Positions 598 to 60,254 of a stretch of 64,000 nucleotides of DNA are shown here, piece after piece. The translations under genes and the position numbers were made by a program. Where the stretch lies: NCBI GenBank assembly GCA_028279825.1, contig JANQNA010000003.1, positions 30,518 to 94,517 on the forward strand, read 5' to 3'. This DNA comes from an archaeon (GTDB lineage Archaea; Aenigmatarchaeota; Aenigmatarchaeia; GW2011-AR5). Position 1 is the first letter of the stretch, and the number at the start of each line of letters is the position of its first letter. Below the pieces are notes generated by a model. The model was not told the DNA's origin. It did no database searches and saw only the letters and a program-made list of their open reading frames with translations.

Positions 598-1494
598 TTA
601 TGTGACAACAAACGTCCAAGTTGCCGGTTTCATGGTACCTTCAGGTATTCCCTTTGGTATCCATACGTCTGCCGTGACTTTTTCAATGTCGTTAGGTGCC
701 ATAGGACCTGCAGTTATCCAGTCAGATGCTGTACAAGTCGTTGCATTGAATGCACCGGTTCTTCTGTCAAAGTTGTAGAAGTATACCTTGTCACATTCCC
801 ATCCAACTGCCACACAAGAACCGTCCAAAAAGTGACCTGATCTTGTTATCCTGAAGTAACTGAAGTTTGTATCTCCACCCTCTCTCGTTATATCCGACAC
901 AGTCGGAGTTCTTGATTCAATAGTACCGTTGTCAGGATCGTCTTCTATAGCAAACTGAGCAAGACTGTCATTACATTGCCCAAGCGTCGGTGTTCCTGAA
1001 CCATTCCCGATAGCCCAGTAAAAAGCAGCACTTGCATTTCTCAAGAATCCTTCACCTACTGGATCGTCTATGTCACTACGATCCGTATTGGATATAGCTT
1101 CCGTCCAGTTCCATTCAAGTCTTCCTGCCCAGAAGTATGTTGAAGTTGATTCATTCCTAAAGGTCAGAACAGCACCTGCACTGTAGTCAAGTGCATATGA
1201 AGAACCATAAGGTCTGTCAGTTTCATTTGTTATTGTCGTAACAAATGCATACATGTTTGTAATATTTGTAGAACCGGTATTCTTGACGTCTACGTTAACA
1301 GTACCACCTGCCTGACCAGGTGTTATGCCGGACCAGTTTATCACAGAAGGCGTAACTGTTATTTCGGTCAATGACGTAACGCTAACATCAACAGTAACAT
1401 TGTCGTCTCCGTAAGCAAAAACAATATCGGATCTCGATACTAGCAGAAATGCTGTGGCGAATACAAGCACCAGTACCAATATCCCAACTTTCAT
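598..1494 (-). CDS. Secreted protein rich in N-glycosylation sequons, paralog 2
   Basis: 298-aa ORF with an N-terminal signal/TM (MKVGILVLVLVFATAF) and more than 12 NxS/T sequons. It is about 85 % identical to ORF 1555..2472 and has no recognisable catalytic motif. Confidence 0.75.
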   Translation of the reverse strand: MKVGILVLVLVFATAFLLVSRSDIVFAYGDDNVTVDVSVTSLTEITVTPSVINWSGITPGQAGGTVNVDVKNTGSTNITNMYAFVTTITNETDRPYGSSYALDYSAGAVLTFRNESTSTYFWAGRLEWNWTEAISNTDRSDIDDPVGEGFLRNASAAFYWAIGNGSGTPTLGQCNDSLAQFAIEDDPDNGTIESRTPTVSDITREGGDTNFSYFRITRSGHFLDGSCVAVGWECDKVYFYNFDRRTGAFNATTCTASDWITAGPMAPNDIEKVTADVWIPKGIPEGTMKPATWTFVVT

Positions 1495-1518
1495 ACTTCT
1501 ATTTCTGCTCTTGGGCGC

Positions 1519-1526
1519 TATATAAA
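1519..1526 (-). promoter_or_regulatory. TATA box copy upstream of paralog 2
   Basis: aatcTTTATATAgcgcccaagagcagaaatagaagtATG. Same 24-nt spacing as the other two copies. Confidence 0.5.
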
Positions 1527-1554
1527 GATTGTTGTTGTACCATATAGACTAATT

Positions 1555-2472
1555 TTATGTGACAACAAACGTCCAAGTTGCCGGTTTCATGGTACCTTCC
1601 GGTACTCCTTTCGGTATCCACGCATCTGCAGTCAGTTTTTCAATGTCGTTAGGTGCCATAGGACCTGCAGTTATCCAGTTCACGTTGGAACAGATACTTC
1701 CGTTGAATGCACCCGATCTTCTGTCAAAGTTGTAGAAGTATACCTTGTCACATTCCCATCCAACTGCCACACATGTACCGTCCAAAAAATGTCCCGCTCT
1801 GGTTATTGAAAAATAACTGAAGTTAGTGTCGCCCCCATTCCTTGTTACACCAGATATAGAAGGCGTTCTTGATTCAATAGTACCGTTGTCAGCATCGTCT
1901 TCTATAGCAAACTGAGCAAGGCTGTCATTACATTGCCCAAGCGTTGGTGACCCTGAACCATTACCGATCGTCCAGTAAAAAGCAGCACTTGCATTCCTCA
2001 AAAACCCTTCACCTACAGGATCATCCACAGCGCTACGATCCGTATTTGCTATTGACTCTGTCCAGTTCCATTCAACTCTACCGGCCCAGTAATAAGTGGA
2101 AGTTGTTTCGTTTCTGAATGTTACAACAGCACCGGCACTGTAATCGCCCGCATATGAAGAACCATAAGGTCTGTCAGTTTCATTTGTTATTGTCGTAACA
2201 TAAGCATACATATTTGATATATTTGAAGACCCTGTGTTTTGAACATCAACTGTTACAGTTCCTGCGGCTGTACCGGGAAGTATGTCAGACCAGTTTATTA
2301 TTGATGGTGAAACTGTAATCTCAGAAAGCTGTCCGATGCTAACTTCAACAGTAACATTGTCATCTCCGTAAGCAAACGTAACGCCGGACGTACCTAAAAT
2401 TATTAACCCACCGATTCCTACGGCTACCAGAAACAGCCAATTTTTTGGCGCGTTTCCTTTGTCAGAAATCAT
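1555..2472 (-). CDS. Secreted protein rich in N-glycosylation sequons, paralog 3
   Basis: The ORF track extends to 2544. The likely true start is Met25 (MISDKGNAPKNWLFLVAVGIGGLIILG, ATG at 2470-2472), because the conserved TATA lies exactly 24 nt upstream of it. Confidence 0.75.
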   Translation of the reverse strand: MISDKGNAPKNWLFLVAVGIGGLIILGTSGVTFAYGDDNVTVEVSIGQLSEITVSPSIINWSDILPGTAAGTVTVDVQNTGSSNISNMYAYVTTITNETDRPYGSSYAGDYSAGAVVTFRNETTSTYYWAGRVEWNWTESIANTDRSAVDDPVGEGFLRNASAAFYWTIGNGSGSPTLGQCNDSLAQFAIEDDADNGTIESRTPSISGVTRNGGDTNFSYFSITRAGHFLDGTCVAVGWECDKVYFYNFDRRSGAFNGSICSNVNWITAGPMAPNDIEKLTADAWIPKGVPEGTMKPATWTFVVT

Positions 2473-2540: not shown

Positions 2541-5243
2541 TCAAACAAAATTTTTTCTTAACCTAACTATTATACCACTTAACTTACTTTTTTCATACCC
2601 TACGCCCTGACCAAGCGACTTTGTACCGCCACCTTTGCCGTTAAGCTCTTCACAAACCTCTTTTACAATTTTCCCGGCGTCTTCTTTTCTGTTTTTGCCA
2701 ACTGATACCAAAACATGAATTTTTTCATTCTTGCCAAACAAAACCAGTATTCTGTCGTCTGCAGATAATTTTTTTGATATGTTCTGCAAAGTTTTTTGAT
2801 CTGCCTCAAGTTCTTGGACCAAAACATTCTCTACTATTTTATCTTCAAGATATTCCGTCATGCCCGATGCTTCTTGTTCTATTGTTTTTTCTTTCTCCTT
2901 TTTGGATTTCTTCCATTTTTCCAGAAGATCTTCCGTACCTTTTACCAGATCCTTTACACCAAGAATTTTTTTACACTCATCAACTATCCTGTCAACCCTT
3001 TCTTCATATTTTTTGGCAGCAGGTCCTGCCACAAAGTCTATACGAGCTATATTGTCCTGTATTCTCTCAGTAGAAACAATAACAATTTTCCCAACCTCTG
3101 AAGTCGAATCTAAGTGTGTCCCGCCGCAGGCCTCTACGTCAGTACCTGCTATATTAACTATGCGCAGTTCTCTGCCTGGCACAGCACCACCCTGGTATAT
3201 ACCAAAGCCATGCTTACTCTCAGCTTCACCCCTGTTAACGAATTTCTTGTCTATACGCTTCGACGAAGAAACAATATCATTTGCCTCTCTTTCTATACGA
3301 TATAATTGTTCATCGGTTATAGCCGTGTAGTGAGTAATATCCAGATGTGCTTTGTCAACATCCTTGAAGGCGCTTGCCTGGTTAATATGATTACCTAAAA
3401 CCCTGCGGGCAGCTTCATTAAGTATATGGGTCCCTGTGTGATGTTTTGCCAGCTGTATTCTTCTTTCCCCGTCTATCTCCACTTTTACAGGCTGGCCTTC
3501 TACAAAACTCGGCTTACTGAGCATTTTATGAACGATTAGTGCACCCTGCTTGAAAACTTCCACAAAGGGTTCTTTGTTTATTGTGCCTGTATCATGCATC
3601 TGGCCGCCTGATGTAGGATAAGCCACTGTCTGATCTAATATAACGTAATTGTCTACTATTTTCTGTACAGTAGCGGTGTTGGAGAATTTTTTGTAATCAG
3701 CAAAGTATAACGCTTTTGTTGCAGTCACATCGCCAAAATCAATATCAACAGCCTTCTTTGTAGCATGCTTCTGCTCATGATGTTCGTGTATATTGGATAT
3801 AAGTGAATAAAAATTATCAGGCACGTCTATCTTTTTTCCTATCTGTTTTGCTTCCCTTAAGACCAGTTCCGGTGGAACACCATGTGAATCATAAAGTTCT
3901 ACAAGATCATCAAGATCAACATCTCTTGAGACCACTCTTTTAACAAGCTGTACTGATTTCTTCTTCGTCTTTTCATACTTTTCCTTTTCGATATCAAAGA
4001 TCTTTTCCACATTATCCAGGTTTTCCTTTAGCTCTGGCACCTGCGGTTTCAGATATTTTGCATGAAGCTCAAAGAGTTTCTTTACATCAATATTCCAGTC
4101 GTTTTTGTCTATAAACCCTAGCATTCTTCTAAAGATAATACGAAGATTATACGAGTCACCAACATTCGATGGTATCGCCCCGTCACTAAACATCAAAAGC
4201 AGAGCCCTGCTATGTTCAGCCACGGAATACAGCCCGGCCAATGGAAGAATATTCTCCTTTAATGTACTCACGTCTGTACCGACTTTTTGTGCAACATCCT
4301 TCCAGGAGTCTTCAACATTTTCTATTTCATCCAGATTTAACAATCCACCATAAGGAACAAACCTGCCAATAAGTTTTTTGTCAAACTTCAGTTTAGTTTG
4401 TTTTAGCAAATGTTCCATTACTGTTGGGAAAGTAGCGTCGTATATTGTGTTTGTACCCTGTGAAAACCAGGCATTTCGTTCCTGCCCCATACCCATGTCC
4501 AGAACCTTCAGATCTAAGTCACGAAGTCCATTATCACTTTGTTCATACATCATGTAGACCTGATTGCCAAGCTCATTGCCTCTCGAAAAGAACTCCATAC
4601 AAGGACCAAGATTACCGCCACCGGCCCAGGCATCTTCATGAAAAGTCACCTCGCTGTTCGGCAGTCCGAGCCCCTTCTTCAGCCAGGCGTGTATATGTTC
4701 CAATACAAGGTTCTGGTCCCACTCCGAAGGCTGTACAAACGCATGTTGTCCTATCATCGAGAAAACAGTATTGTGACTGCCTGTTATCCCGACATTGTCA
4801 ATGTCCACAGTACGAAAGCAATATTGTGGAATAACAAGCCTCTTCGCGGGAGGTTCAACTTCTCCGGATACAACAAACGGCTGGAATGCCGCTATAGAAG
4901 CATTTGTGAATTCCATTGTCGGATTCCATCTAGCAACAATAGGATAACGATTAATAGGAGTATAGCCAAACTTTTCAAACATTTTTGAAAAGCGCTTCCA
5001 GACTTGTATGTAATCAAGTTTCTTTTTCGCCGGAGATTTGCCGATAAAGGCAAAAGGAATCTCGCCGCATGCAGGATCCCCGCAAGTATCGCGACCTTCG
5101 GTCGCCCAAAAAGGTTTTTTACAATTTTTACATTTCCTTCTTTTGTAACCTTCCGTTTGAAGATACTCTGTGGCGTAATACTTCTCAGGATCCTTGTAGA
5201 AGCTGCCTACATACTTCTTTTTCGCTTCCTTATCTGTTAACAT
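2541..5243 (-). CDS. alaS: Alanyl-tRNA synthetase
   Basis: About 900 aa of class II AlaRS. It has the editing-domain HxxxH / CGGTH signature (HHTGTHIL, ACGGTHL), a zinc finger CKNCKK...C near the N-terminus, and a C-terminal DHHA1-like region. Probable start is MLTDKEAKK; the ORF track adds 16 upstream codons. Confidence 0.9.
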   Translation of the reverse strand: MLTDKEAKKKYVGSFYKDPEKYYATEYLQTEGYKRRKCKNCKKPFWATEGRDTCGDPACGEIPFAFIGKSPAKKKLDYIQVWKRFSKMFEKFGYTPINRYPIVARWNPTMEFTNASIAAFQPFVVSGEVEPPAKRLVIPQYCFRTVDIDNVGITGSHNTVFSMIGQHAFVQPSEWDQNLVLEHIHAWLKKGLGLPNSEVTFHEDAWAGGGNLGPCMEFFSRGNELGNQVYMMYEQSDNGLRDLDLKVLDMGMGQERNAWFSQGTNTIYDATFPTVMEHLLKQTKLKFDKKLIGRFVPYGGLLNLDEIENVEDSWKDVAQKVGTDVSTLKENILPLAGLYSVAEHSRALLLMFSDGAIPSNVGDSYNLRIIFRRMLGFIDKNDWNIDVKKLFELHAKYLKPQVPELKENLDNVEKIFDIEKEKYEKTKKKSVQLVKRVVSRDVDLDDLVELYDSHGVPPELVLREAKQIGKKIDVPDNFYSLISNIHEHHEQKHATKKAVDIDFGDVTATKALYFADYKKFSNTATVQKIVDNYVILDQTVAYPTSGGQMHDTGTINKEPFVEVFKQGALIVHKMLSKPSFVEGQPVKVEIDGERRIQLAKHHTGTHILNEAARRVLGNHINQASAFKDVDKAHLDITHYTAITDEQLYRIEREANDIVSSSKRIDKKFVNRGEAESKHGFGIYQGGAVPGRELRIVNIAGTDVEACGGTHLDSTSEVGKIVIVSTERIQDNIARIDFVAGPAAKKYEERVDRIVDECKKILGVKDLVKGTEDLLEKWKKSKKEKEKTIEQEASGMTEYLEDKIVENVLVQELEADQKTLQNISKKLSADDRILVLFGKNEKIHVLVSVGKNRKEDAGKIVKEVCEELNGKGGGTKSLGQGVGYEKSKLSGIIVRLRKNFV

Positions 5244-5299
5244 GTCTACCCAAGTATAGTTAGAAAAAACAAAATTTAAAGCAAAAAACAAAAAAAGGT

Positions 5300-11572: not shown

Positions 11573-11845
11573 ATGAGTTCAGGTATATCATTCCCAGCTA
11601 CACGTGCATGGTTGGCTTTTTCTATAAGGGGTTATCATGTTGAAAGGGAGAATGGCGGATGGACAGTTCTACATGATGCAATTGAAGTTACACATTATGA
11701 AAGATCAGACAGTGGGGGATTAAGTTTCCGGCTTTTTTCCCAGGATCCGGTAGTTAAGGAAATAGCAGATAGACTTGGAGAAAATGTAATTTATGCTTAT
11801 GCACATGGTTTGCAGGCATTTGGACAAGAAACATCTACTCCATGA
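11573..11845 (+). CDS. Hypothetical protein
   Basis: 90-aa ORF with no recognised motif. Confidence 0.35.
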   Translation: MSSGISFPATRAWLAFSIRGYHVERENGGWTVLHDAIEVTHYERSDSGGLSFRLFSQDPVVKEIADRLGENVIYAYAHGLQAFGQETSTP

Positions 11846-14645
11846 ATATTCCAAACTTGTTGGGTGAAGCTACTTTTGCTTTTTGATTTGTTGTCTTGTC
11901 GGCATCTATGATTTCTATCTTTGTGTTAGTTTCTCTCTGAAGAAATTCTTTTGCCTCCTTAAGAAGAATCAACTGCATGCTTTTTGTCATTACAGGTTTT
12001 AGCTCGTTAAGTTTTTTGTAAAGAGACTGGATAAACGACACAGTAGCCTTGCCGTAGGCCCCCGAGGACATTATCTCCTTGGTTATTGTATTCATGTTCT
12101 GATCTTTGTTCCTCAAAACCTTTTGATACACCCTGAACTTCCAGTCTTCTGCGATGAAGAGTATTATCTTCTTTGGCTTCATTTTCACGATTCTCTGAAG
12201 ATCTTCTATATCATTCAGAGTCTTTTTCAACATATCCTCACCCAGCTCAGCTTCATTACTCAGCCTTGTGCTGTCCCATTTCGGCCAGCCGGATATCATC
12301 TTCTTGTTGCCCAGATTGCTCCACATTTCCTCACAAACGTGCGGTGTGAACGGAGTTAGAAGCTTGACAATTACTCCCGTGTATTCCTTGATTACTTTCT
12401 TGTTCGCATTTTTCAGGTTGCCTGTCCTTCTCAAATACCACTTAAGATCCGAAGTGGCCTCGAATAGCGCGCTTTGCACGGCATCGCGGAACATCATTGA
12501 TTCCATTGATTTTGTCGTACTTTCTATAATTTTCTGCAGCTTGCCCTGCATGAACAGGTCAATATTCTCCATCTTCGTCTTCTTTGCCTTTTTCCAGTCT
12601 GTAGACAACTGAAACAGTGTATCATAGCGGTTCCTGTAAGCCTTTACTGATTCTTCTCTCCAGTCAGCATCATCAATTCCCTGGCTGGAACCAACCATGT
12701 TTATCCTTACCATGTCGGCACCGTGCTGCTCTAATAGGCTTTTCAGTGGTATTATGTTGCCCTTTGACTTGCTCATCTTTTCCCCTTCAACGTTGACGTA
12801 GCCGTTGACACTTATTCCATTTGGCCATTTTGCCCTTGGGAATAAAGCAATATGGTGGAACATGAAGAATGTAAGATGATTTTGTACAAGATCTTTCCCG
12901 CTGGATCTCATATCTACAGGATAGAAATATTCGAACTCTTTTCTGAGGTCTCTCAGAATCGAAAGCTTTAATTTTGAAGCTTTCGCCACCTTCTTTGTAT
13001 CACCCTTGCCTGTGAAAATAAAGTCAAACACTTCGTCTGTCAGCTTTTCCGGTTTTACCTTTTTTTCATTGATTATTCTCGCAAGTGTATAGTAAGCCAT
13101 GTAAATTGTTGAGTCACTCAACGTTTCAACAATCCATTCCCTGTCCCATGGAATAGGCGTGCCTAAACCACTCTTTCTCGCACATGCTTTGTCTCTTAAC
13201 CAGTCTATCGTGTTTTCAAAGTTGTTCCTGGCCTCTTCCGGGTAAATAGTCATTCTTGAAAGGTTTGTCCGTACATCTTTCTTCCATTCTTCGTCTGAAA
13301 ACTTCAGGAACCATTGATTTTCCAGAATCTTAACATGACAACGGGTATTACATCTGCACACAACTTCACCGACTTCCCACATGACATTTGCAACACCTTT
13401 TTCTATGAAATCCAGTGTTAGTTTCTCTTTTGATTCGTTAACTTTCGTTCCTGTATATTGTCCTGAATTTTTTACAGTTCCCGTATGGAATTCTTTCTTA
13501 TAGAGCAACGAAGTTGCTTCATCAAGCTTTTTCGTATCCGATAAGTCCTTTATACCCATTTGCTCACATAGCTCCACAGCAGGTAATTCACCAAACCCTT
13601 CAACCTCTATCACACTGACTGGTTCTATGTCCGTGCGTTGTGTGTTGTACAGCTGCAGTTCATCCTTGTCCATAAGCTCCATTAATGCGGCCCAGTCATA
13701 AGGCGCGTGAGCAGGCACGCTCATTACAACACCTGTGGCCGTATCTCCACCAACAAATTTTGAAGGAAGGATAGGAATCTCTCTGTTTGAAACAGGATCT
13801 ATGCATCTTTTACCAAAAAGTTCTTTCACGTCAAAATCACTGATAATTTCAACTTTCATCTGGTCCTTCAGTTTTTGCGCAGCTTCGTTGCTGATTATCC
13901 ATCTTTCCCCGTCCACATCTGCCTCGACGTAGTGAGTATCCGGATTCAGCCACATGTTCGTCACACCATATATTGTCTCCGGCCGAAGCGTAGCTGCCGG
14001 CAAGATGTAACCAAGATAAGTGAACTTAAGAAGTACATAGTCAACAGGGCTCTCTCCTTCTCCTATTAGCCTGTCGTGATCACCCGTTGGACTTAAGTCT
14101 TTAGGGCACCATACCACAGGGTGTGTTCCCTGTGTCACAAAACCTTTCTCCTTTAGAGTATTATATTGCCACTCGATAAATCGAGAATATGTAGGCGTGA
14201 GTGTTGTTGTGACGAATTTACGTCTCCAGTCTATGGACATACCGGCTGCCTCCAGCGTAGCGATCCATTTTTTTATGAAAAAGTGAACAAGATTCTTTGG
14301 GTCTTTCTTGAAACCTTCTATGTCCTTTTCTGTAGCCCCATACCCATGCATTGCCTGGATTTGTGATTCATCGCCATTGTTAAGTCTCTTGACGACACCG
14401 ATAATTGGCTCACCTGTCGCGTGAAAACCCTGTGGGAATAGAACATTGAACCCCTGCTGGCGTTTATAACGCGCATATACATCCGTGCGGAATGCCGAAT
14501 AACCATGACCAACGTGTGGGGGACCGTTTACGTAAGGATAAGGAAACGTGATAAAGAATTTTTTGCCTTTGGATACATTAGCCTCAAACATCTTGGCCTT
14601 TTTCCATTTCTTCTGCCACTTACTGTCAAACACTTTAAAATCCAT
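11835..14645 (-). CDS. leuS: Leucyl-tRNA synthetase (archaeal type)
   Basis: 936 aa with YPYVNGPPHVGHGYSAFRTDVYARYKRQQGFNVLFPQGFHATGEPI (the archaeal LeuRS HIGH region) and KMSKSKGN. Confidence 0.9.
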   Translation of the reverse strand: MDFKVFDSKWQKKWKKAKMFEANVSKGKKFFITFPYPYVNGPPHVGHGYSAFRTDVYARYKRQQGFNVLFPQGFHATGEPIIGVVKRLNNGDESQIQAMHGYGATEKDIEGFKKDPKNLVHFFIKKWIATLEAAGMSIDWRRKFVTTTLTPTYSRFIEWQYNTLKEKGFVTQGTHPVVWCPKDLSPTGDHDRLIGEGESPVDYVLLKFTYLGYILPAATLRPETIYGVTNMWLNPDTHYVEADVDGERWIISNEAAQKLKDQMKVEIISDFDVKELFGKRCIDPVSNREIPILPSKFVGGDTATGVVMSVPAHAPYDWAALMELMDKDELQLYNTQRTDIEPVSVIEVEGFGELPAVELCEQMGIKDLSDTKKLDEATSLLYKKEFHTGTVKNSGQYTGTKVNESKEKLTLDFIEKGVANVMWEVGEVVCRCNTRCHVKILENQWFLKFSDEEWKKDVRTNLSRMTIYPEEARNNFENTIDWLRDKACARKSGLGTPIPWDREWIVETLSDSTIYMAYYTLARIINEKKVKPEKLTDEVFDFIFTGKGDTKKVAKASKLKLSILRDLRKEFEYFYPVDMRSSGKDLVQNHLTFFMFHHIALFPRAKWPNGISVNGYVNVEGEKMSKSKGNIIPLKSLLEQHGADMVRINMVGSSQGIDDADWREESVKAYRNRYDTLFQLSTDWKKAKKTKMENIDLFMQGKLQKIIESTTKSMESMMFRDAVQSALFEATSDLKWYLRRTGNLKNANKKVIKEYTGVIVKLLTPFTPHVCEEMWSNLGNKKMISGWPKWDSTRLSNEAELGEDMLKKTLNDIEDLQRIVKMKPKKIILFIAEDWKFRVYQKVLRNKDQNMNTITKEIMSSGAYGKATVSFIQSLYKKLNELKPVMTKSMQLILLKEAKEFLQRETNTKIEIIDADKTTNQKAKVASPNKFGIFME

Positions 14646-14734: not shown

Positions 14735-14854
14735 GGGTTCGTAGCTCAGCTTGGATAGAGCATTAGCCTTCTATCTTCGGAAGAAAGCTAAGGGTCGCGG
14801 GTTCGAAAACTGTATGAGAGCTTTGCTCTCCGGTCGATTATCCCGTCGGGCCCA
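14735..14854 (+). tRNA. tRNA-Arg (anticodon TCT) with a 12-nt intron at 37/38 and a ~32-nt insert in the T-loop
   Basis: Acceptor GGGTTCG/CGGGCCC+A. D arm GCTC-AGCTTGGATA-GAGC. Anticodon stem TTAGC/GCTAA with loop CTTCTA|tcttcggaagaa|A. Exon nt 32-35 CTTC pair with the intron 3' end GAAG to give the 4-bp BHB helix. T stem GCGGG/CCCGT encloses TTCGAaaaCTGTATGAGAGCTTTGCTCTCCGGTCGAttat. A T-run follows. Confidence 0.8.
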
Positions 14855-14871
14855 CTTTTTTAATTGTGGGA

Positions 14872-18880: not shown

Positions 18881-20524
18881 CTATTTCTTGAATATAAATT
18901 CGAGATCAATCTCAAATGCAACCACAGGATTTTCTAAATCCCATGAGTTAAGCACGGATGGATGAATCTCGCCTATGAAGCCCAGTGAAGTTTTCCCGAC
19001 GAATATCTCTGCTGTGCGACCTTCTATGAAACTGTCATGCCTGCCTTTTTTCAGGTAGTAATCAATTCCTATGTTGCGGAAAAATGCATCCAATCTTTGT
19101 GATATTGTTTCATAACTCACATTGCCTGTACAGGCAGCTGCTAACTTTTGAACATCCCTTGCCTTTGTTTCCCTGGAGTTGTCCGCAAGGACAACATTAC
19201 CTATCTCAAAAACGGATTGTGGATATTCAACATGCCTGTTTTTAGAGAATATGTCCATTAACCCGGGTATCAGACTTGTTCGGAAAACAGACCAGTTTGC
19301 AGACATAGGTTTTTCTATCTCGACGGCTTCGCCGTCGGTATTCATTCTTGCGTAAAGATCATTTACATTTGTTAATGTGTAAGACATTATTTCCTGGAAT
19401 CCTGCACCAATCATTATCTCTGTAAGCTTGTCTATGATGTGAATCTCTTTAGAGATTCCACCTTTTGTTATAGTTTTCAGTTCTTCAGGTTCTATATCGT
19501 TAAAGCCGTATGAAATTATTACGTCTTCTATTACATCATCTTCATGCATTATATCCTGGCGGTATGCTGGGTACAGAACATCAATCTTCTTTCCTTTCTG
19601 TTTGGCATCATATAGTGATTTTTTCAGAAGAACCAGAATCTCTTCTGTCTTTAGCGTTAATCCCAGCATCTTGTTTACAGAATCAACGTTTATTGTATAT
19701 TTCTTCGGCGTGAGATTTGGTGTAACTTCTGAAGTTTTTTGGTAGTTTACTTTTACAGAATATATCGTCCCGCCGCGCTCTGCAAGTGCAGCAACAAGAA
19801 CGTTTATGGCTGTGTTCAAAAACCTGAGATCAAATCCACTGCATTCTATAAAGACGTCAGTAGTCTTTTCCGTAATCTTTCCGCTAAAATCAGAATTGAT
19901 TATAGGCGGCATCGAGAGGACTTCACCGACAGAGTCAATGAATATAGGAAAGTCTTCCTTCAGCAAGTGTCCAAACTCTTTACCCTTTGGGTGTTTTTCC
20001 AGAATTTCTTTAGGATGTAACTTTTCCTTGAACTCCAAAGGCACAAAACTAATGTCCTTGTCTTTGACAGATTTGAACGTTATCGGGAATTGTAATTGTC
20101 CAACATCATAAACACCTATTGCAACTTCCCTGCGGTTGCTGCCAAACGTACCGGCTACCTTTTCTTGCAGCTGAATCATTTGCGACAACATGTTTTCATC
20201 TATTTTCAGTCCCTTCACAACAGCACACGTTGTAAAAGGTCTAACTTTTTCCACACTCTTGTCCACGTTGACAACGTAGTCAGACTTCTTTACTTCGTAT
20301 TTTGGCAAACCAGGACTATATCTTGCCTTTATCTCTCTTGCAACACCTTCGGCACTCCAAAGGTCAGGACGATTTGTATCCTTAATGTCCAATTTAAGCA
20401 CGTCACCCTCTACCTTATCCAACTCAGTCTTGGCAAACATGACATCATCGCGCAATTCCTCTATAGACAGTTTACGCCCGATTAGTCCGCATAAATCCTT
20501 GTGTGATACATCTATTGTTGGCAT
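18881..20524 (-). CDS. pheT: Phenylalanyl-tRNA synthetase beta subunit
   Basis: About 545 aa with archaeal PheT B3/4 and B5 domains, immediately downstream of pheS. The probable start is MPTIDVSHKDL. Confidence 0.85.
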   Translation of the reverse strand: MPTIDVSHKDLCGLIGRKLSIEELRDDVMFAKTELDKVEGDVLKLDIKDTNRPDLWSAEGVAREIKARYSPGLPKYEVKKSDYVVNVDKSVEKVRPFTTCAVVKGLKIDENMLSQMIQLQEKVAGTFGSNRREVAIGVYDVGQLQFPITFKSVKDKDISFVPLEFKEKLHPKEILEKHPKGKEFGHLLKEDFPIFIDSVGEVLSMPPIINSDFSGKITEKTTDVFIECSGFDLRFLNTAINVLVAALAERGGTIYSVKVNYQKTSEVTPNLTPKKYTINVDSVNKMLGLTLKTEEILVLLKKSLYDAKQKGKKIDVLYPAYRQDIMHEDDVIEDVIISYGFNDIEPEELKTITKGGISKEIHIIDKLTEIMIGAGFQEIMSYTLTNVNDLYARMNTDGEAVEIEKPMSANWSVFRTSLIPGLMDIFSKNRHVEYPQSVFEIGNVVLADNSRETKARDVQKLAAACTGNVSYETISQRLDAFFRNIGIDYYLKKGRHDSFIEGRTAEIFVGKTSLGFIGEIHPSVLNSWDLENPVVAFEIDLEFIFKK

Positions 20525-20525
20525 A

Positions 20526-20756
20526 CTACACCCTTCCATAGAACAATGCTTCCAACTTCTCACCATCTTTTAGCGGTCTCTCATCAAAGAAGGATATCAT
20601 CTGTTCTTTTGTTTCTTCATTCTCGAATATGATAGCAAACTTGTCTTTTTCATTAAACATACACCCTGGCATTAGTATATGGAAATGCCACTTGACTTTG
20701 TTCTTGTAACATTCCTCCGCTTTTTTCAACAATACAGAAAATTCTACTTCATTCAT
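20526..20756 (-). CDS. Hypothetical small protein
   Basis: 76 aa between pheS and pheT (4-nt overlap with pheS). No motif recognised. Confidence 0.4.
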   Translation of the reverse strand: MNEVEFSVLLKKAEECYKNKVKWHFHILMPGCMFNEKDKFAIIFENEETKEQMISFFDERPLKDGEKLEALFYGRV

Positions 20757-21997
20757 ACAACCACCTGTTTTCTCAAAAGATCTAAATTCTGGCTGAACAG
20801 ATCACGAATATCTTTTATTCCAAGCTTGAACATGGCTAGCCTGTCTATTCCCAGTCCCCATGCTATGACAGGAACATCAACACCCAACGGCTGTGTTAAC
20901 TCTTTTCTGAACACACCCGCACCGCAAAATTCTACCCATCCAAGTTCAGGGTGTTTTGCGGACATCTGGACAGACGGTTCCGTAAAAGGATAATAGTCTG
21001 GGAAAAACTTTACCTTCTCAGCACCGGCAAATTCTATTGCAAACTTTTTCAGTATACCCAACAGACTTCGAAAGTTAAGCGTCTCATCTACAACAATACC
21101 TTCTGTCTGGTTAAACTCAACACCATGTGTAGCATCTATTACATCCGGCCTGTAGCATCTTGCTATAGAAAAGTATCTTCCAGGTATTTTACAATTCGTA
21201 AGCGTACGCGCCGACGTAGCCGTGCCGTGTGCACGAGGCATCAACCTTGACGCTTTCTCCGGCGACCACTTATAACCCCAGCCGATGCTGCCTGTAGTCC
21301 ATCCATTTTCGTGCGCAGCTTTTACGTTATCCAGCAAAGCACCGCCAGGAAGATCCCCGTTCTTTGGAGATTTTAGAGAATATGTCTGTGTCCAGTCACG
21401 GCTTGGGTGGTTCTGTGGTTGATACAACGCATCAAAGTTCCAGAATTCTAGCTCAATAGTCGGCCCGATCATTTCCTGAAAACCTAACTCCACCAACTTC
21501 TTTCTTACATCACCGAGAAAAGCATTATACGGATGTCTTTTACCGATGTGCATCTTCTTACCCGGGGATTCAACATTGTACGGACGAAGCTTGACATCCT
21601 TCCATACACCCGATTTAATAAGATCAGTATTCAGTGAAGTTACTTCCTGCCCCTTGTACTTTTCCGCTCTTTTTAACAGATCCTCTCCGCCTTTCTTGAC
21701 AAGTTTTCTGGAAATAAGCGTTTCTACTATAGAAGTTTCCTTGTCATCTGAAACATCCTTTAAACCATTTTGCTGATCTTCTATTTCTTTTGGCTCTTTT
21801 GTTAGGGTTAACTTGCCGTGTACAACTTCTACACAATCATATTTCTTGCACCATTGAAGGGCTATGGAAAATTCTTTACCAAGTTTCTGCGTTGCCTCTT
21901 TCATTTCCACAGGCCCATCCCTTATTAGCTCTATTAACCTCTTCTCAGGTAACCCCTTCTTTAGGTACTTTTTGCCTTCTTCTGTTAGTACATACAT
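20753..21997 (-). CDS. pheS: Phenylalanyl-tRNA synthetase alpha subunit
   Basis: Class II motifs 2 and 3 (FRKELTQPLG...GAGVFRKE / GLGIDRLAM) with an N-terminal winged-helix region. Confidence 0.9.
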   Translation of the reverse strand: MYVLTEEGKKYLKKGLPEKRLIELIRDGPVEMKEATQKLGKEFSIALQWCKKYDCVEVVHGKLTLTKEPKEIEDQQNGLKDVSDDKETSIVETLISRKLVKKGGEDLLKRAEKYKGQEVTSLNTDLIKSGVWKDVKLRPYNVESPGKKMHIGKRHPYNAFLGDVRKKLVELGFQEMIGPTIELEFWNFDALYQPQNHPSRDWTQTYSLKSPKNGDLPGGALLDNVKAAHENGWTTGSIGWGYKWSPEKASRLMPRAHGTATSARTLTNCKIPGRYFSIARCYRPDVIDATHGVEFNQTEGIVVDETLNFRSLLGILKKFAIEFAGAEKVKFFPDYYPFTEPSVQMSAKHPELGWVEFCGAGVFRKELTQPLGVDVPVIAWGLGIDRLAMFKLGIKDIRDLFSQNLDLLRKQVVV

Positions 21998-22470: not shown

Positions 22471-23946
22471 ATGACGCAAGAGAAGATAGAAGAAGTGGCC
22501 AGAAGGCGAGGGTTCTTCTGGAAGGGATCAGAGATATACGGCGGACTCTCCGGTTTTTACGATTATGCTCATTTAGGATCAGCTATAAAGATCAAGTGGG
22601 AGAACGAGTGGAGAAAGTTTTTCCTATCTCTGGACGACAATTTCTTTGAAATTCAACCAGCAAATATAATGCACGAAAAAGTGTTCATAGCCTCCGGCCA
22701 TGTTGATTCTTTCGTAGATCCGGTTGTAAAGTGTAAAAAATGCGGTAACTTCGAGAGAGCAGACCAGATACTTGAGCACCATCTCAAAGAGAACTTTGAA
22801 GGAATTGAGCCTAAAGAATTGGAAAATTTGATAAAGAAGCATGATATAAAATGTCCTAAATGCGAGGGTAAGTTCGAAGAAGTCGGGTCATTTAACTTGC
22901 TGTTTCCTTTGACTGTCGGTGCAGAGAATCCGCAAAAGGCTTATCCCCGCGGCGAGACGGCCCAGGGTGTTTACGTAAACTTTGCCCGGGAGTTCGAGTG
23001 CCTAAGAAAAAAATTGCCAATGGGTCTGGCCATCGTGGGCAAAGCCTACAGGAACGAAATCAGCCCTAGAAACTTATTGTTAAGGATGCGTGAGTTTACA
23101 CAGGCAGAACTGCAGATATTCTTTGACCCGGAAAAAATAGAGGAACACCCAAAATTTGAAGAAGTAAGAACTGAAAAACTTCGCGTTCTTTTTGTGAAAA
23201 ACAAAGAATCCAAGGAAATTACGGCTGAAGAATTAACCAACAGATTACCCCAGTTTTATGTTTACCACATGGCCAAGGTACAAAAATTCTTTTTGGAAGT
23301 CATGAAGTTCCCTAAAGAAAAATTCCGGTTCAAGGAGTTATCTGAAGAAGAACGGGCATTCTACAACAAATATCACTGGGATGTTGAACTAGAGCTTAGC
23401 AACGGTTTTACGGAAGTTGGCGGTGTTCACTACAGAACAGACCATGACCTTTCAGGACATCAAAAAGTATCTAAAGAAGACATGTCCGTCTTCACAGATA
23501 AAAAAATCCTGCCGCACGTTCTGGAATTAAGTTTTGGAGTTGATCGTAATGTTTTGGCCCTGCTGGAACTAAATTATCGTGAAGATGAAAGAAACTTTTT
23601 CACGTTTCCCAGAAATGTCTCACCATTCCATTGTGCGGTTTTTCCTTTAGTCAAGAAAGACGGTCTGGACGAATTAGCCACAGAAATAAAAGAGCTGTTG
23701 AAAGAAAACCTTTCTGTGTTCTACGACAATTCAGGAAGCATAGGCCGCAGATACAGGCGAATGGATGAGATCGGTGTGCCGCTTTGTTTAACGGTTGATC
23801 ACAAGTCTTTAGAGGACAAAACCGTAACACTTCGTGATCGCGATTCAATGGCACAGGTTAGGGTGAAAATTAGCGATCTGGAAGATTTTATGCGCAGATT
23901 TTTCAAAGGAGAAGACCTGCAAAACCTCGGAGTTATAGTTAAATAG
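22471..23946 (+). CDS. glyS: Glycyl-tRNA synthetase (archaeal/eukaryotic alpha2 type)
   Basis: MTQEKIEEVARRRGFFWKGSEIYGGLSGFYDY is the N-terminal signature of alpha2 GlyRS, and class II motifs are present. Confidence 0.9.
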   Translation: MTQEKIEEVARRRGFFWKGSEIYGGLSGFYDYAHLGSAIKIKWENEWRKFFLSLDDNFFEIQPANIMHEKVFIASGHVDSFVDPVVKCKKCGNFERADQILEHHLKENFEGIEPKELENLIKKHDIKCPKCEGKFEEVGSFNLLFPLTVGAENPQKAYPRGETAQGVYVNFAREFECLRKKLPMGLAIVGKAYRNEISPRNLLLRMREFTQAELQIFFDPEKIEEHPKFEEVRTEKLRVLFVKNKESKEITAEELTNRLPQFYVYHMAKVQKFFLEVMKFPKEKFRFKELSEEERAFYNKYHWDVELELSNGFTEVGGVHYRTDHDLSGHQKVSKEDMSVFTDKKILPHVLELSFGVDRNVLALLELNYREDERNFFTFPRNVSPFHCAVFPLVKKDGLDELATEIKELLKENLSVFYDNSGSIGRRYRRMDEIGVPLCLTVDHKSLEDKTVTLRDRDSMAQVRVKISDLEDFMRRFFKGEDLQNLGVIVK

Positions 23947-25348: not shown

Positions 25349-25609
25349 ATGGAAATCATGCTTACTGAAGCACAGATAAGATTCATTAACGACGAAGCGG
25401 AAAAACTCTGCGTTTCCTATGGATTCGGATATGTTCGCGACAAAGATGGGTTAAGCACAGCAACACGTTGCGGTGTTTCAGTCTACAGGATTTGGATAAC
25501 AAAAGGTCGTGGAAAAAGCTACGGTGTTAAAAACGTTACACCTTTAGAAGGAACAAGATACCGGAATAAGTTTTTAGAAAAAGAACTGATAAAAATTCGT
25601 AAACCTTAA
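25349..25609 (+). CDS. Hypothetical protein
   Basis: 86 aa, preceded by an AT-rich TATA-like box. Confidence 0.35.
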   Translation: MEIMLTEAQIRFINDEAEKLCVSYGFGYVRDKDGLSTATRCGVSVYRIWITKGRGKSYGVKNVTPLEGTRYRNKFLEKELIKIRKP

Positions 25610-26196
25610 GGCTTATGTCGTGTTATCTGGTAATAAGTCACGTCGCCTTCATTATCTACAATAGCCCAGAGCATTCTAGCACGTATATTATGTGCAAGTC
25701 TTACCGATCTGGACAGCTCCTGGAAAGAGCAGGCGTAATCTTCTGATATTGAGAATACAATCCACTTGGTGTGCTCTTTAGACGATTTAGGACCCTTTTT
25801 GAGCTGCACACCCCGTTCATACACACGAAAATCACAGCCAAACTTGAAGCCTGTGCGGACCAAAAGTCCTCTCTCGCGTAAGTCTTCATATACTCTGAAT
25901 CGTTCAGCGAAGCGCGGATCAAGTTTACCAGCATGCGCATAAAGTTCCTCAAAATCAACCTGTTTTTTCCCGGAGAAAACCTTTATCCGGCCGCGCTTAA
26001 GCAGCAGCAAAGCTTCTATCAGAGCTAACTCTAGCCTGTCTCCTAACTGCTTTCCGTAGTAACCCGGCTCGTAGACATGCTCTGAGTTTTCTGTGGCTAT
26101 TACTTTGTCGCCTTCCAGCTTCGTGTCTACAACCATCTTGAATGGTTCCGGCTCTACATACTCATTGTCCTCTATTTTTGTTTTCTTCTTTGGCAT
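25606..26196 (-). CDS. endA: tRNA-splicing (intron) endonuclease
   Basis: The EndA catalytic-domain signature YEDLRERGLLVRTGFKFGCDFRVYE with downstream HS/K. The start MPKKKT is chosen because the upstream ORF-track codons overlap tRNA-Phe. Confidence 0.85.
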   Translation of the reverse strand: MPKKKTKIEDNEYVEPEPFKMVVDTKLEGDKVIATENSEHVYEPGYYGKQLGDRLELALIEALLLLKRGRIKVFSGKKQVDFEELYAHAGKLDPRFAERFRVYEDLRERGLLVRTGFKFGCDFRVYERGVQLKKGPKSSKEHTKWIVFSISEDYACSFQELSRSVRLAHNIRARMLWAIVDNEGDVTYYQITRHKP

Positions 26197-39066: not shown

Positions 39067-39214
39067 TGGGCCGCGTGAGATTTGAACTCACGACCTCCTG
39101 CTAACCTAGATCACAACGATGTAAACTGTATGACGCATCTTGAATGCGTCTTTCTACTTCTTATCGTTGTGTGTCATATAAGACAGGTGCTCTACCAGGC
39201 TAAGCTAGCGGCCC
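39067..39214 (-). tRNA. Intron-containing tRNA, anticodon reads TAT (tRNA-Ile UAU) with a 74-nt structured intron at 37/38
   Basis: Reverse complement: GGGCCGC-TA-GCTT-AGCCTGGTA-GAGC-A-CCTGT-CTTATA|intron|A-GCAGG-AGGTC-GTGAG-TTCAAAT-CTCAC-GCGGCCC-A. Exon nt 32-35 CTTA pair with the intron 3' end TAGG to form the 4-bp BHB central helix. The intron holds a 9-bp helix CACAACGAT/ATCGTTGTG and an inner hairpin GACGCAT-tcaag-ATGCGTC. Confidence 0.7.
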
Positions 39215-40925: not shown

Positions 40926-41030
40926 GGGCCTGTAGTCTAGTGGTATGACGTCTGCTTCACACGCAGGAGACCGGCGGTTCGATAGCTGTATGAGAGCTAC
41001 GCTCTCCAGTCGAGTGTCCGCCTGGGCCCA
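40926..41030 (+). tRNA. tRNA-Val (CAC) with a ~32-nt insert in the T-loop
   Basis: GGGCCTG-TA-GTCT-AGTGGTAT-GAC-G-TCTGC-TTCACAC-GCAGG-AGACC-GGCGG-TTCGAtag[CTGTATGAGAGCTACGCTCTCCAGTCGA]gtgt-CCGCC-TGGGCCC-A. The insert block is shared with tRNA-Arg. A T-run follows. Confidence 0.75.
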
Positions 41031-51773: not shown

Positions 51774-52601
51774 TCACTTACCTATATCATGAATAATCAT
51801 GCCAGTTTTACTTATCTCAACGGGATGCACATCCTCGTTGTTTATTGTATTTCGCATTTTCCTGATTAACAGGTTCCTTGAAAACTGGCCGCCCATGGAT
51901 TCAAAATTAATGAGCAAAATACCGTCTGCAACAAACTCTGATATGGTATCTCTCGAAATATATCTGCCTCTCTCCGCGGACTCGGATATCAACAGTGTTG
52001 TGCAGTCATTTTCCATTAAACGAAGCGAATCAACAAAATTGTAGATGAATCTCTTGACTATCAGGTCTCCCATTATAGGCGGTGAAAAGAAGGAATTTTT
52101 CTTCATTATATCAACCAACGCCATGTCCTTCACATAATTATAAACAGGAGCATTTATTGCCAGCGAAGATATCGAGTCAACCACGAGCCTTTTTATTTTA
52201 TTCTCGGAAACGTTGTTGATTAATTCATCCAGTGCAGCGAAATCCAGATTCTTTATTGGCATATGCTTTATTTCCAGCATACCCTCGTTTATTAGCGGTT
52301 CAAGGTCCCATCCAAACTGCAGTGCCTGTTCCTTGAGTGATTCCACAGGTTGTCCAAAACTAACATATAACCCTTTTTCTTTGAACTCAGTAACGCCGTT
52401 GTACAGATACTCCAGACTAAAAATAGTCTTGCCTGTTCCCGGAGTTCCTGTTAATAGAATAGTACTGCCGCGCGGAAATCCGCCCTCAATCAGCTCGTCA
52501 AAACCCTTTATACCTGTTTTAGTGCGATCTTTAACCATTAAATCACTACTAGTAATATCCCTCAAGCAGTTTATAAAAGTTCTAGAATCAATCTTTCCCA
52601 T
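51774..52601 (-). CDS. KaiC-like / RecA-superfamily ATPase
   Basis: GIKGFDELIEGGFPRGSTILLTGTPGTGKT (Walker A in KaiC/RadA context). 275 aa. Confidence 0.7.
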   Translation of the reverse strand: MGKIDSRTFINCLRDITSSDLMVKDRTKTGIKGFDELIEGGFPRGSTILLTGTPGTGKTIFSLEYLYNGVTEFKEKGLYVSFGQPVESLKEQALQFGWDLEPLINEGMLEIKHMPIKNLDFAALDELINNVSENKIKRLVVDSISSLAINAPVYNYVKDMALVDIMKKNSFFSPPIMGDLIVKRFIYNFVDSLRLMENDCTTLLISESAERGRYISRDTISEFVADGILLINFESMGGQFSRNLLIRKMRNTINNEDVHPVEISKTGMIIHDIGK

Positions 52602-60140: not shown

Positions 60141-60254
60141 GGCTGCTATGGTGTAGCTTGGTTAGCATATGGGCCTGTGGAAAGCTTTCCATGACTTCAA
60201 AAGCGGAAAGTTTACAGTAAGCCTCTGGGGCGGGTTCAAATCCCGCTAGCAGCC
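60141..60254 (+). tRNA. tRNA-His (GTG) with genomically encoded G-1 and 39-nt canonical BHB intron
   Basis: G-1 pairs with C73. GCTGCTA-TG-GTGT-AGCTTGGTTA-GCAT-A-TGGGC-CTGTGG|39-nt intron|A-GCCTC-TGGG-GCGGG-TTCAAAT-CCCGC-TAGCAGC-C. Exon CTGT pairs with intron ACAG (central helix), and intron AAGCTTTCC pairs with GGAAAGTTT (outer helix). Confidence 0.85.

Follow-up and report, generated by a model that had tools for sequence, protein, structure and literature searches.

A tRNA-Arg(UCU) gene with two predicted bulge-helix-bulge-type introns, one of them in the T-loop, on an Aenigmatarchaeota genome fragment

Introduction

A 64,000-nucleotide stretch of contig JANQNA010000003.1 (GenBank assembly GCA_028279825.1), called the window below, contains 120 nt that carry all the parts of a tRNA-Arg(UCU) gene together with two inserts, one in the anticodon loop and one in the T-loop. 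The question raised by this locus is whether the inserts are introns of a working tRNA gene and, if so, how they would be removed. We conclude that it is very likely a functional Aenigmatarchaeota tRNA-Arg(UCU) gene, whose 120-nt precursor holds two protein-spliced introns of the bulge-helix-bulge (BHB) type, and that the tRNA-splicing endonuclease (EndA) encoded 11 kb away probably processes both. An initial annotation, made from the letters of the DNA, had already described a tRNA-Arg(TCT) gene of 120 nt with two inserts, and the sequence bears this out.

The best relatives of the LeuRS encoded in the window, at 52-66% identity, are almost exclusively from metagenome-assembled genomes (MAGs) labelled Candidatus Aenigmatarchaeota. 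Judged by its LeuRS and EndA homologues, the source is a DPANN archaeon (Aenigmatarchaeota) without a close sequenced relative, and is not euryarchaeal. The initial annotation had noted that T-loop introns are known mostly from Thermoproteales and a few DPANN lineages, not from typical euryarchaeal genomes; the kind of lineage fits, and the euryarchaeal contrast does not apply here.

Gene structure and detection

The segment has every part of a class-I tRNA (Table 1). Its acceptor stem is 7 bp long and includes two G.U pairs, its D arm has the usual AGCTTGGATA loop, its anticodon and T stems have 5 bp each, and its variable region has 5 nt. The 5' part of the gene reads GGGTTCG TA GCTC AGCTTGGATA GAGC A TTAGC CTTCTA[TCTTCGGAAGAA]A GCTAA GGGTC and the 3' part GCGGG TTCGAA[AACTGTATGAGAGCTTTGCTCTCCGGTCGATTA]T CCCGT CGGGCCC A, with the inserts in brackets. 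Both interrupted loops are oversized, the anticodon loop with 19 nt and the T-loop with 40 nt, each against the normal 7. The figure of 46 nt enclosed by the T stem GCGGG/CCCGT in the initial annotation was a miscount, and its estimate of about 32 nt for the T-loop insert was close to the true length of 33 nt. Oligo-T runs are archaeal transcription termination signals, and the six-T run just downstream is likely such a stop.

Standard tools do not recognize this gene. ARAGORN with default settings found only tRNA-Phe and tRNA-Asn in the window. Allowing introns of 0-200 nt, in runs on the whole window and on the gene alone, added two more window tRNAs and nothing at the tRNA-Arg locus; this option accepts introns only in the anticodon loop. 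At the gathering threshold, Rfam detected four window tRNAs, tRNA-Arg not among them; at a permissive threshold its tRNA model scored 20.2 bits on the gene (cut-off 29) with the T arm deleted or broken, and the gene boundaries are therefore not settled by Rfam. Once both inserts were removed in silico, ARAGORN called tRNA-Arg(tct), with a best score of 120.5 for the version with loop TTCGAAT; the call was the same for every choice of 33 nt that, removed together with the 12 nt, gives a T-loop of 7 nt. Removal leaves 21/21 cloverleaf pairs intact, with no change in the conserved D and T loops. The predicted mature product is a 75-nt tRNA with loops CUUCUAA and UUCGAAU, 94.7% identical to the spliced orthologue at locus L004, with differences confined to the acceptor stem. 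Since spliced orthologues from relatives are nearly identical to this product, the exon content is fixed independently of folding.

Boundaries drawn by a covariance model so that the T arm becomes canonical would have spoken against a T-loop insert. A model (R1) was built from 12 spliced or intron-less orthologues, with the window sequence excluded, and no such arm was found. R1 aligned to 14735-14824 at 49.5 bits and placed a 13-nt insert in the anticodon loop, and it could align the 3' strands of the T stem and acceptor stem only to mismatching bases inside the T-loop insert. We therefore reject a contiguous canonical T arm; the sole fully paired solution requires excision of 33 nt.

Splice motifs at the two inserts

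We enumerated all one- and two-intron solutions whose product is a cloverleaf of 75 nt in which the anticodon loop is CTTCTAA and the T-loop matches TTCRA. The score of a junction took in a central helix (H) of 4 bp, an outer helix (h), an inner one (h') and bulges of 3 nt, with cleavage following the second bulge base. The best-scoring registers were 37/38 for the 12-nt insert (H 4/4, h 5, h' 1) and 59/60 for the 33-nt insert (H 3/4, h 5, h' 4). The first of these, directly after A37, is also what a direct reading gives and what had been annotated.

For intron 1, CTTC at 14768-14771 (C32UUC35) pairs with GAAG at 14780-14783 (intron G7A8A9G10) in a perfect 4-bp central helix, as predicted for positions 32-35 in the initial annotation. 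The 3' bulge (14784-14786, A11 A12|A38) has the canonical 3 nt and is stacked on the anticodon stem. With only 12 nt the intron has no room for an h' helix, and hence its 5' site (A37|U1) sits in the terminal loop. Such a motif is of the relaxed hBH or bulge-helix-loop (BHL) form, in keeping with the minimal hBH-type intron first proposed. When the 12-mer was shuffled in place, a central helix with H = 4 arose in 1% of cases.

The T-loop insert, first described as a second, non-canonical intron, proves to have a near-canonical hBHBh' motif. Its central helix joins TTCG (14802-14805) to CGAT (14835-14838) through U55-A, C56-G and G57-C, with a U54.U mismatch. The T stem serves as the outer helix; the 5' bulge lies at 14806-14808 (A58 A59|A) and the 3' bulge at 14839-14841 (UA|U60), and h' is formed by ACUG (14809-14812) with CGGU (14831-14834). 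Inside the intron, a UAU bulge is followed by a 6-bp hairpin, GAGAGC-UUU-GCUCUC (14816-14830). The centroid fold of the whole gene reproduces the T-loop BHB structure exactly, and the cloverleaf with both BHB motifs has a free energy of -38.0 kcal/mol compared with -40.8 kcal/mol for the minimum free energy (MFE) fold. Shuffling the 33-nt insert in place produced a BHB with H of at least 3 and h' of at least 4 in 0.6% of trials.

Two other readings of the T-loop insert were rejected. Taking ACUG/CGGU as the central helix would leave an 18-nt T-loop and put both bulges on one strand, and a K-turn in the conserved UAU-bulge hairpin is contradicted by the pairs after the bulge, which are Watson-Crick and not tandem G.A. 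At 12 and 33 nt the inserts fall short of group I or II introns, and no intron family in Rfam matched them even at E<=10. The gene is not a split or permuted tRNA gene, as one contiguous stretch of 120 nt holds its three exons in colinear order. No citable minimum length for archaeal tRNA introns was found in the literature.

Recurrence of 59/60 introns and a paralogous intron in tRNA-Val(CAC)

Metagenome contigs were scanned with the pattern GGGTTCGAAA-N18-40-CGATTWTCCC, which returned 80 stretches; the pattern presets the H helix and three T-stem pairs, which are thus uninformative for conservation. Most of the 80 stretches are chance matches that lack T-stem complementarity or the inner helix. 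Fourteen matches fall in nine distinct tRNA genes, namely Arg(UCU), Arg(GCG), Gly(GCC), Gly(UCC), Ser, Ala (three) and Trp, which ARAGORN called after removal of the insert, and all have an h' of 3-8 bp. Matches with a complementary T stem outside a tRNA context have an h' of 0-1 bp, except those at loci L107 (2) and L090 (3), and none of the pattern matches outside a tRNA context was called a tRNA by ARAGORN. Pairs 1-3 of h' are standard in 12/12 independent 59/60 introns, from tRNA Arg, Val, Gly, Ser, Ala and Trp, with four to five pair types at each pair and with h' sequences that vary. As far as these alignments can tell, structure rather than sequence is conserved among these homologous or analogous introns.

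A second hidden tRNA gene in the window, for tRNA-Val(CAC), has a 59/60 intron that is also 33 nt long. Its BHB is perfect, with H 4/4 (counting U54.G), h 5 and h' 4, and after intron removal ARAGORN scored the gene at 118.8 as tRNA-Val(cac). The Val and Arg introns are identical at 27/33 positions (82%), close to the 28/33 shared by the window Arg intron and its counterpart at L007, while the T-arm exons around the Val and Arg introns match at 11/17 only. A core motif shared by the two introns occurs exactly twice in the window and in none of the shuffled sequences. This pair parallels the similar introns in different tRNAs that have been described as "intron transposition" in Thermoproteales (PMC4033280).

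The Val paralogue also bears on the exact splice sites. Registers displaced by one or two bases (58/59, 60/61 or 36/37), or an EndA that cuts only the 3' site of the mini-intron while its 5' side is otherwise handled, would account for the A-runs at the junctions (GAA|AAC, GAA|AGC), through which several registers lead to the same mature sequence, two of them to the identical loop TTCGAAT, and for a mini-intron 5' site outside any 3-nt bulge. We consider this improbable. Only with 37/38 and 59/60 do both sites occupy bulge positions two and three of a BHB with a 4-bp spacer, and the Val intron, whose 3' junction UG|U is free of the A-run ambiguity, fixes 59/60 with a perfect BHB.

Orthologous tRNA-Arg genes in relatives

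About twenty relatives likewise have a tRNA-Arg(UCU) gene located upstream of LeuRS and divergent from it; the gene is retained in all relatives at the LeuRS locus and carries introns in nearly all (Table 1). At least six intron sites occur in this one syntenic gene (19/20, 29/30, 37/38, 40/41, 53/54 and 59/60), and in-silico splicing collapses the relatives' genes to nearly one 75-nt sequence. Homologues of the 12-nt 37/38 intron are found at L010 (TCAATGGAAGAA) and L166 (TCTTTGGAGGAT); among the three lineages the intron differs at three loop bases, or by a change of U33-A to U33.G, and H is kept. The MFE folds of the L010 and L166 genes run from the anticodon stem through a 3-nt bulge and a helix to a tetraloop. 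Homologues of the 59/60 intron occur at L007 (identical in metagenome contigs L080 and L138) and L014, with changes that preserve pairing; the recurrence in relatives agrees with its initial description as an intron. Orthologues without a T-loop insert carry a plain TTCGAAT loop.

The orthologue at L009 (about 5100-5234, minus strand, 131 nt) yields a 75-nt tRNA only through four inserts of 12, 12, 14 and 18 nt. This parse sums correctly, but its position 38 is G, its anticodon stem is weak and its BHBs are poor. To our knowledge the published maximum is three introns per tRNA gene, which the parse would exceed. At L161 an open reading frame (ORF) with a LAGLIDADG_3 domain (620-1390, plus strand) adjoins the tRNA-Arg and LeuRS genes.

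That the window gene is a decaying copy of tRNA-Arg, struck by two insertions and no longer processed, would be consistent with the silence of the standard finders at the locus and with an acceptor stem that contains two G.U pairs. Against such decay stand the intact 21/21 pairs and unchanged D and T loops, splice motifs in precisely those registers that bring the loops back to 7 nt, a conserved site upstream of LeuRS at which the relatives retain tRNA-Arg(UCU), and inserts conserved among lineages whose LeuRS are only about 65% identical; we regard a pseudogene as very unlikely. Retention of the 33-nt insert as a T-arm expansion, or its identity as a self-splicing or other element, we hold to be extremely unlikely, since the stable 6-bp hairpin conserved in three copies, which might suggest it, is outweighed by the T-loop/D-loop interaction that an expanded T-loop would destroy, by junctions that form a BHB, by an h' that covaries without sequence conservation across unrelated tRNAs, by a length too short for group I or II introns with no such Rfam match, and by the plain loop of the insert-free orthologues. 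We know of no precedent for a retained T-loop expansion in a mature tRNA.

The splicing endonuclease and a proposed pathway

The window encodes an EndA of 196 residues. M. jannaschii EndA, a query checked to be identical to PDB 1a79, matched 25609-26118 (minus strand) in tblastn at 41% identity (E 7e-30), and the ORF scored 97 bits for tRNA_int_endo (PF01974) and 59.7 bits for tRNA_int_endo_N (PF02778) in Pfam. The gene begins 2 nt past tRNA-Phe, and tRNA-Asn, tRNA-Phe and EndA share a strand. Relative to M. jannaschii the protein has six extra residues, VQLKKGPKSSKEH, between the catalytic Tyr126 and His142, and the Tyr-His stretch (FRVYERGVQLKKGPKSSKEH) aligns gap-free with the Nanoarchaeum equitans alpha subunit (FRVYDIGVIPKKGKRSEREH, loop IPKKGKRSEREH). 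This Lys-rich loop is invariant in 15/15 Aenigmatarchaeota EndAs, in which the catalytic Tyr and His are conserved as well. Across Aenigmatarchaeota, EndA is 70-86% identical compared with 52-66% for LeuRS, and conservation this strong argues that the enzyme is active.

Broad-specificity EndAs that serve non-canonical introns carry one of several extra loops close to the active site (CSL or L1, ASL or L2, NEQ-type or L3). Residues 90-98 of the N. equitans alpha subunit form the NEQ-specific loop, whose consecutive basic residues were proposed to lead to broad specificity (PMC3488258). The NEQ-type loop was later named L3, found in DPANN EndAs and associated with disrupted tRNA genes (PMC5829648). 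By analogy with these systems, the loop may confer relaxed specificity here too.

We propose the following pathway. In the precursor, the anticodon stem, the helix of C32-C35 with intron bases 7-10 and the AA|A38 bulge would present the 3' site of intron 1. The T stem, the U(54)55-G57/CGA(U) helix, the AA|A and UA|U60 bulges and the intron-internal helix would form the near-canonical hBHBh' motif of intron 2. EndA (25606-26196), with its Lys-rich Nanoarchaeum-type loop next to the catalytic His, would make the four cuts, in bulges or loops; the three exons would then be joined by a ligase of the RtcB type, and CCA would be added after splicing to give the 75-nt tRNA with loops CUUCUAA and UUCGAAU.

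Several observations weigh against a functional, doubly spliced gene served by this enzyme. The central helix of the T-loop motif has 3/4 pairs only, owing to the U54.U mismatch, and the h' of intron 1 amounts to at most one C-G pair. In the isolated anticodon arm the BHB conformer (-4.9 kcal/mol) is 2.4 kcal/mol less stable than a cUUCGg hairpin (-7.3 kcal/mol), and the enzyme would therefore have to capture the BHB conformer of intron 1. The position of the catalytic Lys (MJ K156, AF K287) is Ala173 (about 25678-25680) in the window EndA, within the motif NIRARML, as it is Ala in 15/15 Aenigmatarchaeota EndAs; the next residue is Arg, except for one His and one Lys. No EndA beta subunit was found in the ORFs scanned from this 64-kb window of an incomplete genome, and no RtcB among the 20 window ORFs scanned. 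With 64 kb of the genome seen, a second, uninterrupted tRNA-Arg(UCU) may exist elsewhere, as would suit a pseudogene here. A weak EndA-like tblastn match at 52203-52295 was rejected as a beta subunit, because inspection of the translation placed it in a KaiC/RecA-like ATPase ORF with a GTPGTGKT P-loop.

Other tRNA and synthetase genes

The window holds six tRNA genes, four of them interrupted. ARAGORN called the gene at 60142-60254 Tyr(gta) with a 28-nt intron; we reject this call in favor of tRNA-His with a 39-nt 37/38 intron on the grounds of BHB geometry, G-1 encoded at 60141, discriminator C and the adjoining HisRS. The tRNA-Ile has the anticodon UAU and a 74-nt canonical 37/38 intron. Archaea normally decode AUA with a modified CAU tRNA, and a UAU tRNA-Ile is unusual there.

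The tRNA-Asn and tRNA-Phe of the window are uninterrupted, unlike their counterparts at locus L171 of another Aenigmatarchaeon, which shares with the window the gene order TopoVI-A, tRNAs, EndA, CBS protein. At L171 the syntenic tRNA-Asn(GTT) (747-829, plus strand) has a 10-nt 37/38 intron, AAATGCAGAA, with H 4/4 and an ARAGORN score of 127.3 after removal, and the adjacent tRNA-Phe (about 880-1003, plus strand) has two introns (at about 28/29 and in the variable region). A LAGLIDADG_3-domain ORF (1004-1630, minus strand) adjoins tRNA-Phe and EndA there. The 64-kb window is also unusually rich in aminoacyl-tRNA synthetase genes (Table 1).

Table 1. Features of the window (positions count from its first letter) and introns of orthologous tRNA-Arg genes, the latter given by locus.
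Feature	Position or locus	Strand	Remarks
pre-tRNA-Arg(UCU) gene	14735..14854	+	120 nt, 3 exons and 2 introns, CCA not encoded
tRNA-Arg exon 1	14735..14773	+	tRNA positions 1-37; anticodon TCT at 14770-14772; from splice-register enumeration with BHB scoring
tRNA-Arg intron 1	14774..14785	+	12 nt, TCTTCGGAAGAA, site 37/38, relaxed hBH/BHL
tRNA-Arg exon 2	14786..14807	+	positions 38-59
tRNA-Arg intron 2	14808..14840	+	33 nt, AACTGTATGAGAGCTTTGCTCTCCGGTCGATTA, site 59/60 in T-loop, hBHBh' motif
tRNA-Arg exon 3	14841..14854	+	positions 60-73, discriminator A
Six-T run	14856..14861	+	2 bases past discriminator; likely transcription stop; seen in sequence
tRNA-Val(CAC)	40926..41030	+	second hidden tRNA; Rfam 23.9 bits, sub-threshold; missed by ARAGORN
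tRNA-Val intron	40984-41016	+	33 nt, AGCTGTATGAGAGCTACGCTCTCCAGTCGAGTG, site 59/60, T-loop
tRNA-His	60142-60254	+	anticodon GTG; 39-nt 37/38 intron; BHB geometry
tRNA-Ile	39067-39214	-	anticodon TAT; 74-nt canonical 37/38 intron, good BHB
EndA	25606..26196	-	196 aa, N- and C-terminal domains; tblastn and Pfam
AlaRS	2541-5291
LeuRS	11835-14645	-
PheRS beta	18881-20566		by inspection only
PheRS alpha	20753-21997
Class-II synthetase	22471-23946
Class-I Ile/Val-type synthetase	55590-58454
HisRS	60653-61891
tRNA-Arg, no intron	L013, L024, L026
tRNA-Arg, long 37/38	L006, L018
tRNA-Arg, 29/30 only	L001-L004, L019, L168; L020		L020 29/30 or 32/33 (tied score)
tRNA-Arg, 40/41	L008
tRNA-Arg, 29/30 and 59/60	L007, L014
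tRNA-Arg, 29/30 and 53/54	L012; L161		L161 by eye, not parsed by solver
tRNA-Arg, 29/30 and 40/41	L162; L160		L160 by eye, not parsed by solver
tRNA-Arg, 29/30 and 37/38	L163
tRNA-Arg, D-loop 19/20 and 12-nt 37/38	L010
tRNA-Arg, 12-nt 37/38	L166

Significance

Already known are the splicing mechanism, tRNAs with several introns including non-canonical ones, T-loop introns in one DPANN archaeon (ARMAN-2) and the association of EndA loops with disrupted tRNAs in DPANN. The study of EndA loops did not include Aenigmarchaeota, and it took incomplete tRNA sets in new DPANN genomes as a sign of undetected disrupted genes (PMC5829648). The full-text literature, incompletely covered, held no description of tRNA introns in Aenigmarchaeota or Aenigmatarchaeota, which is weak evidence of novelty. 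The additions made here are a paralogous intron pair, turnover of sites in one syntenic gene, introns of 10-12 nt and a conserved EndA with an altered triad position.

Tentatively, tRNA introns in Aenigmatarchaeota may have proliferated and transposed independently of those in Thermoproteales, which would make the phylum a second hot-spot, comparable to that group. This is suggested because one 33-nt family sits at 59/60 of both Arg and Val tRNAs in one genome, because at least six insertion sites occur in one syntenic tRNA-Arg gene across the phylum, because introns reach down to 10-12 nt, near the geometric minimum of the bulge-helix-loop, and because one unusually conserved alpha-type EndA, with an invariant Lys-rich loop and without the catalytic lysine, appears to serve all. 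If so, the combination of features in this EndA could mean a modified active-site arrangement. The presence of EndA and two unusual substrates on one 64-kb fragment makes an in-vitro test easy to set up, and the locus offers a comparative series for the gain, loss and movement of tRNA introns and for the co-evolution of EndA loops with relaxed motifs.

There is also a consequence for annotation. Default finders overlook two of the six window tRNA genes, those for Arg(UCU) and Val(CAC), and a third, His, is mistyped; annotations of MAGs from Aenigmatarchaeota and similar DPANN lineages will therefore under-count tRNAs, which may wrongly suggest missing decoding capacity or host dependence.

Comparison with known systems

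Intron 1 resembles canonical euryarchaeal 37/38 hBHBh' introns, such as that of Haloferax volcanii tRNA-Trp, in its site, in the central helix drawn from positions 32-35 and in the 3' bulge at the anticodon stem. It differs from them in having no room for h' and a 5' site in the loop. Strict alpha4 and alpha'2 EndAs are reported not to cut hBH/BHL substrates (PMC5829648, PMC3488258). The red alga Cyanidioschyzon merolae has ectopic and multiple tRNA introns with a reported minimum of 11 bp (PMC3728597). It shares with our locus very short introns, sites outside the anticodon loop and BHB-like junctions, but its introns belong to the nucleus of a eukaryote, are served by another endonuclease complex and have no sequence relationship to those here.

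Thermoproteales tRNAs with several introns were reportedly described by Sugahara et al. in 2007 and 2008 and by Fujishima et al. in 2010. The window gene is like these in having several BHB or relaxed-BHB introns beyond 37/38, including the T-loop, in being missed by standard finders, and in sharing similar intron sequences with a different tRNA species. Thermoproteales, however, are Crenarchaeota with an (alpha-beta)2 EndA and a Crenarchaea-specific loop, whereas the organism here is a DPANN archaeon with, as far as the 64 kb show, a single alpha-type EndA and a Nanoarchaeum-type loop. Their multi-intron tRNAs with non-canonical introns have been reviewed (PMC4033280, PMC4090602).

The EndA alpha subunit of N. 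equitans (NEQ205, PDB 3IEY) is alike in its gap-free Tyr-His loop (VQLKKGPKSSKEH in the window EndA, VIPKKGKRSEREH in NEQ205). Unlike the window protein, it has 154 residues and needs the beta subunit NEQ261, and its substrates are mainly split tRNAs. The NEQ, MJ, AF and MK EndAs all have the catalytic Lys, whereas the window EndA has Ala there.

Within DPANN, ARMAN-2 (Ca. Micrarchaeum) provides a parallel. Its pre-tRNA-Cys(GCA) has a relaxed-BHB T-loop intron that is cleaved in vitro (PMC3488258); over half of its tRNA genes have interruptions, and for cleavage in vitro its EndA needs an additional loop close to the active site (PMC3239211, PMC3488258). The source of the window, also a DPANN archaeon, likewise has a T-loop intron whose BHB is relaxed. 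The enzymes differ: in ARMAN-2 a three-unit epsilon2 EndA derives its specificity from K161 of the ASL loop, whereas the EndA of the window is a two-domain protein of about 196 residues with the NEQ-type L3 loop only.

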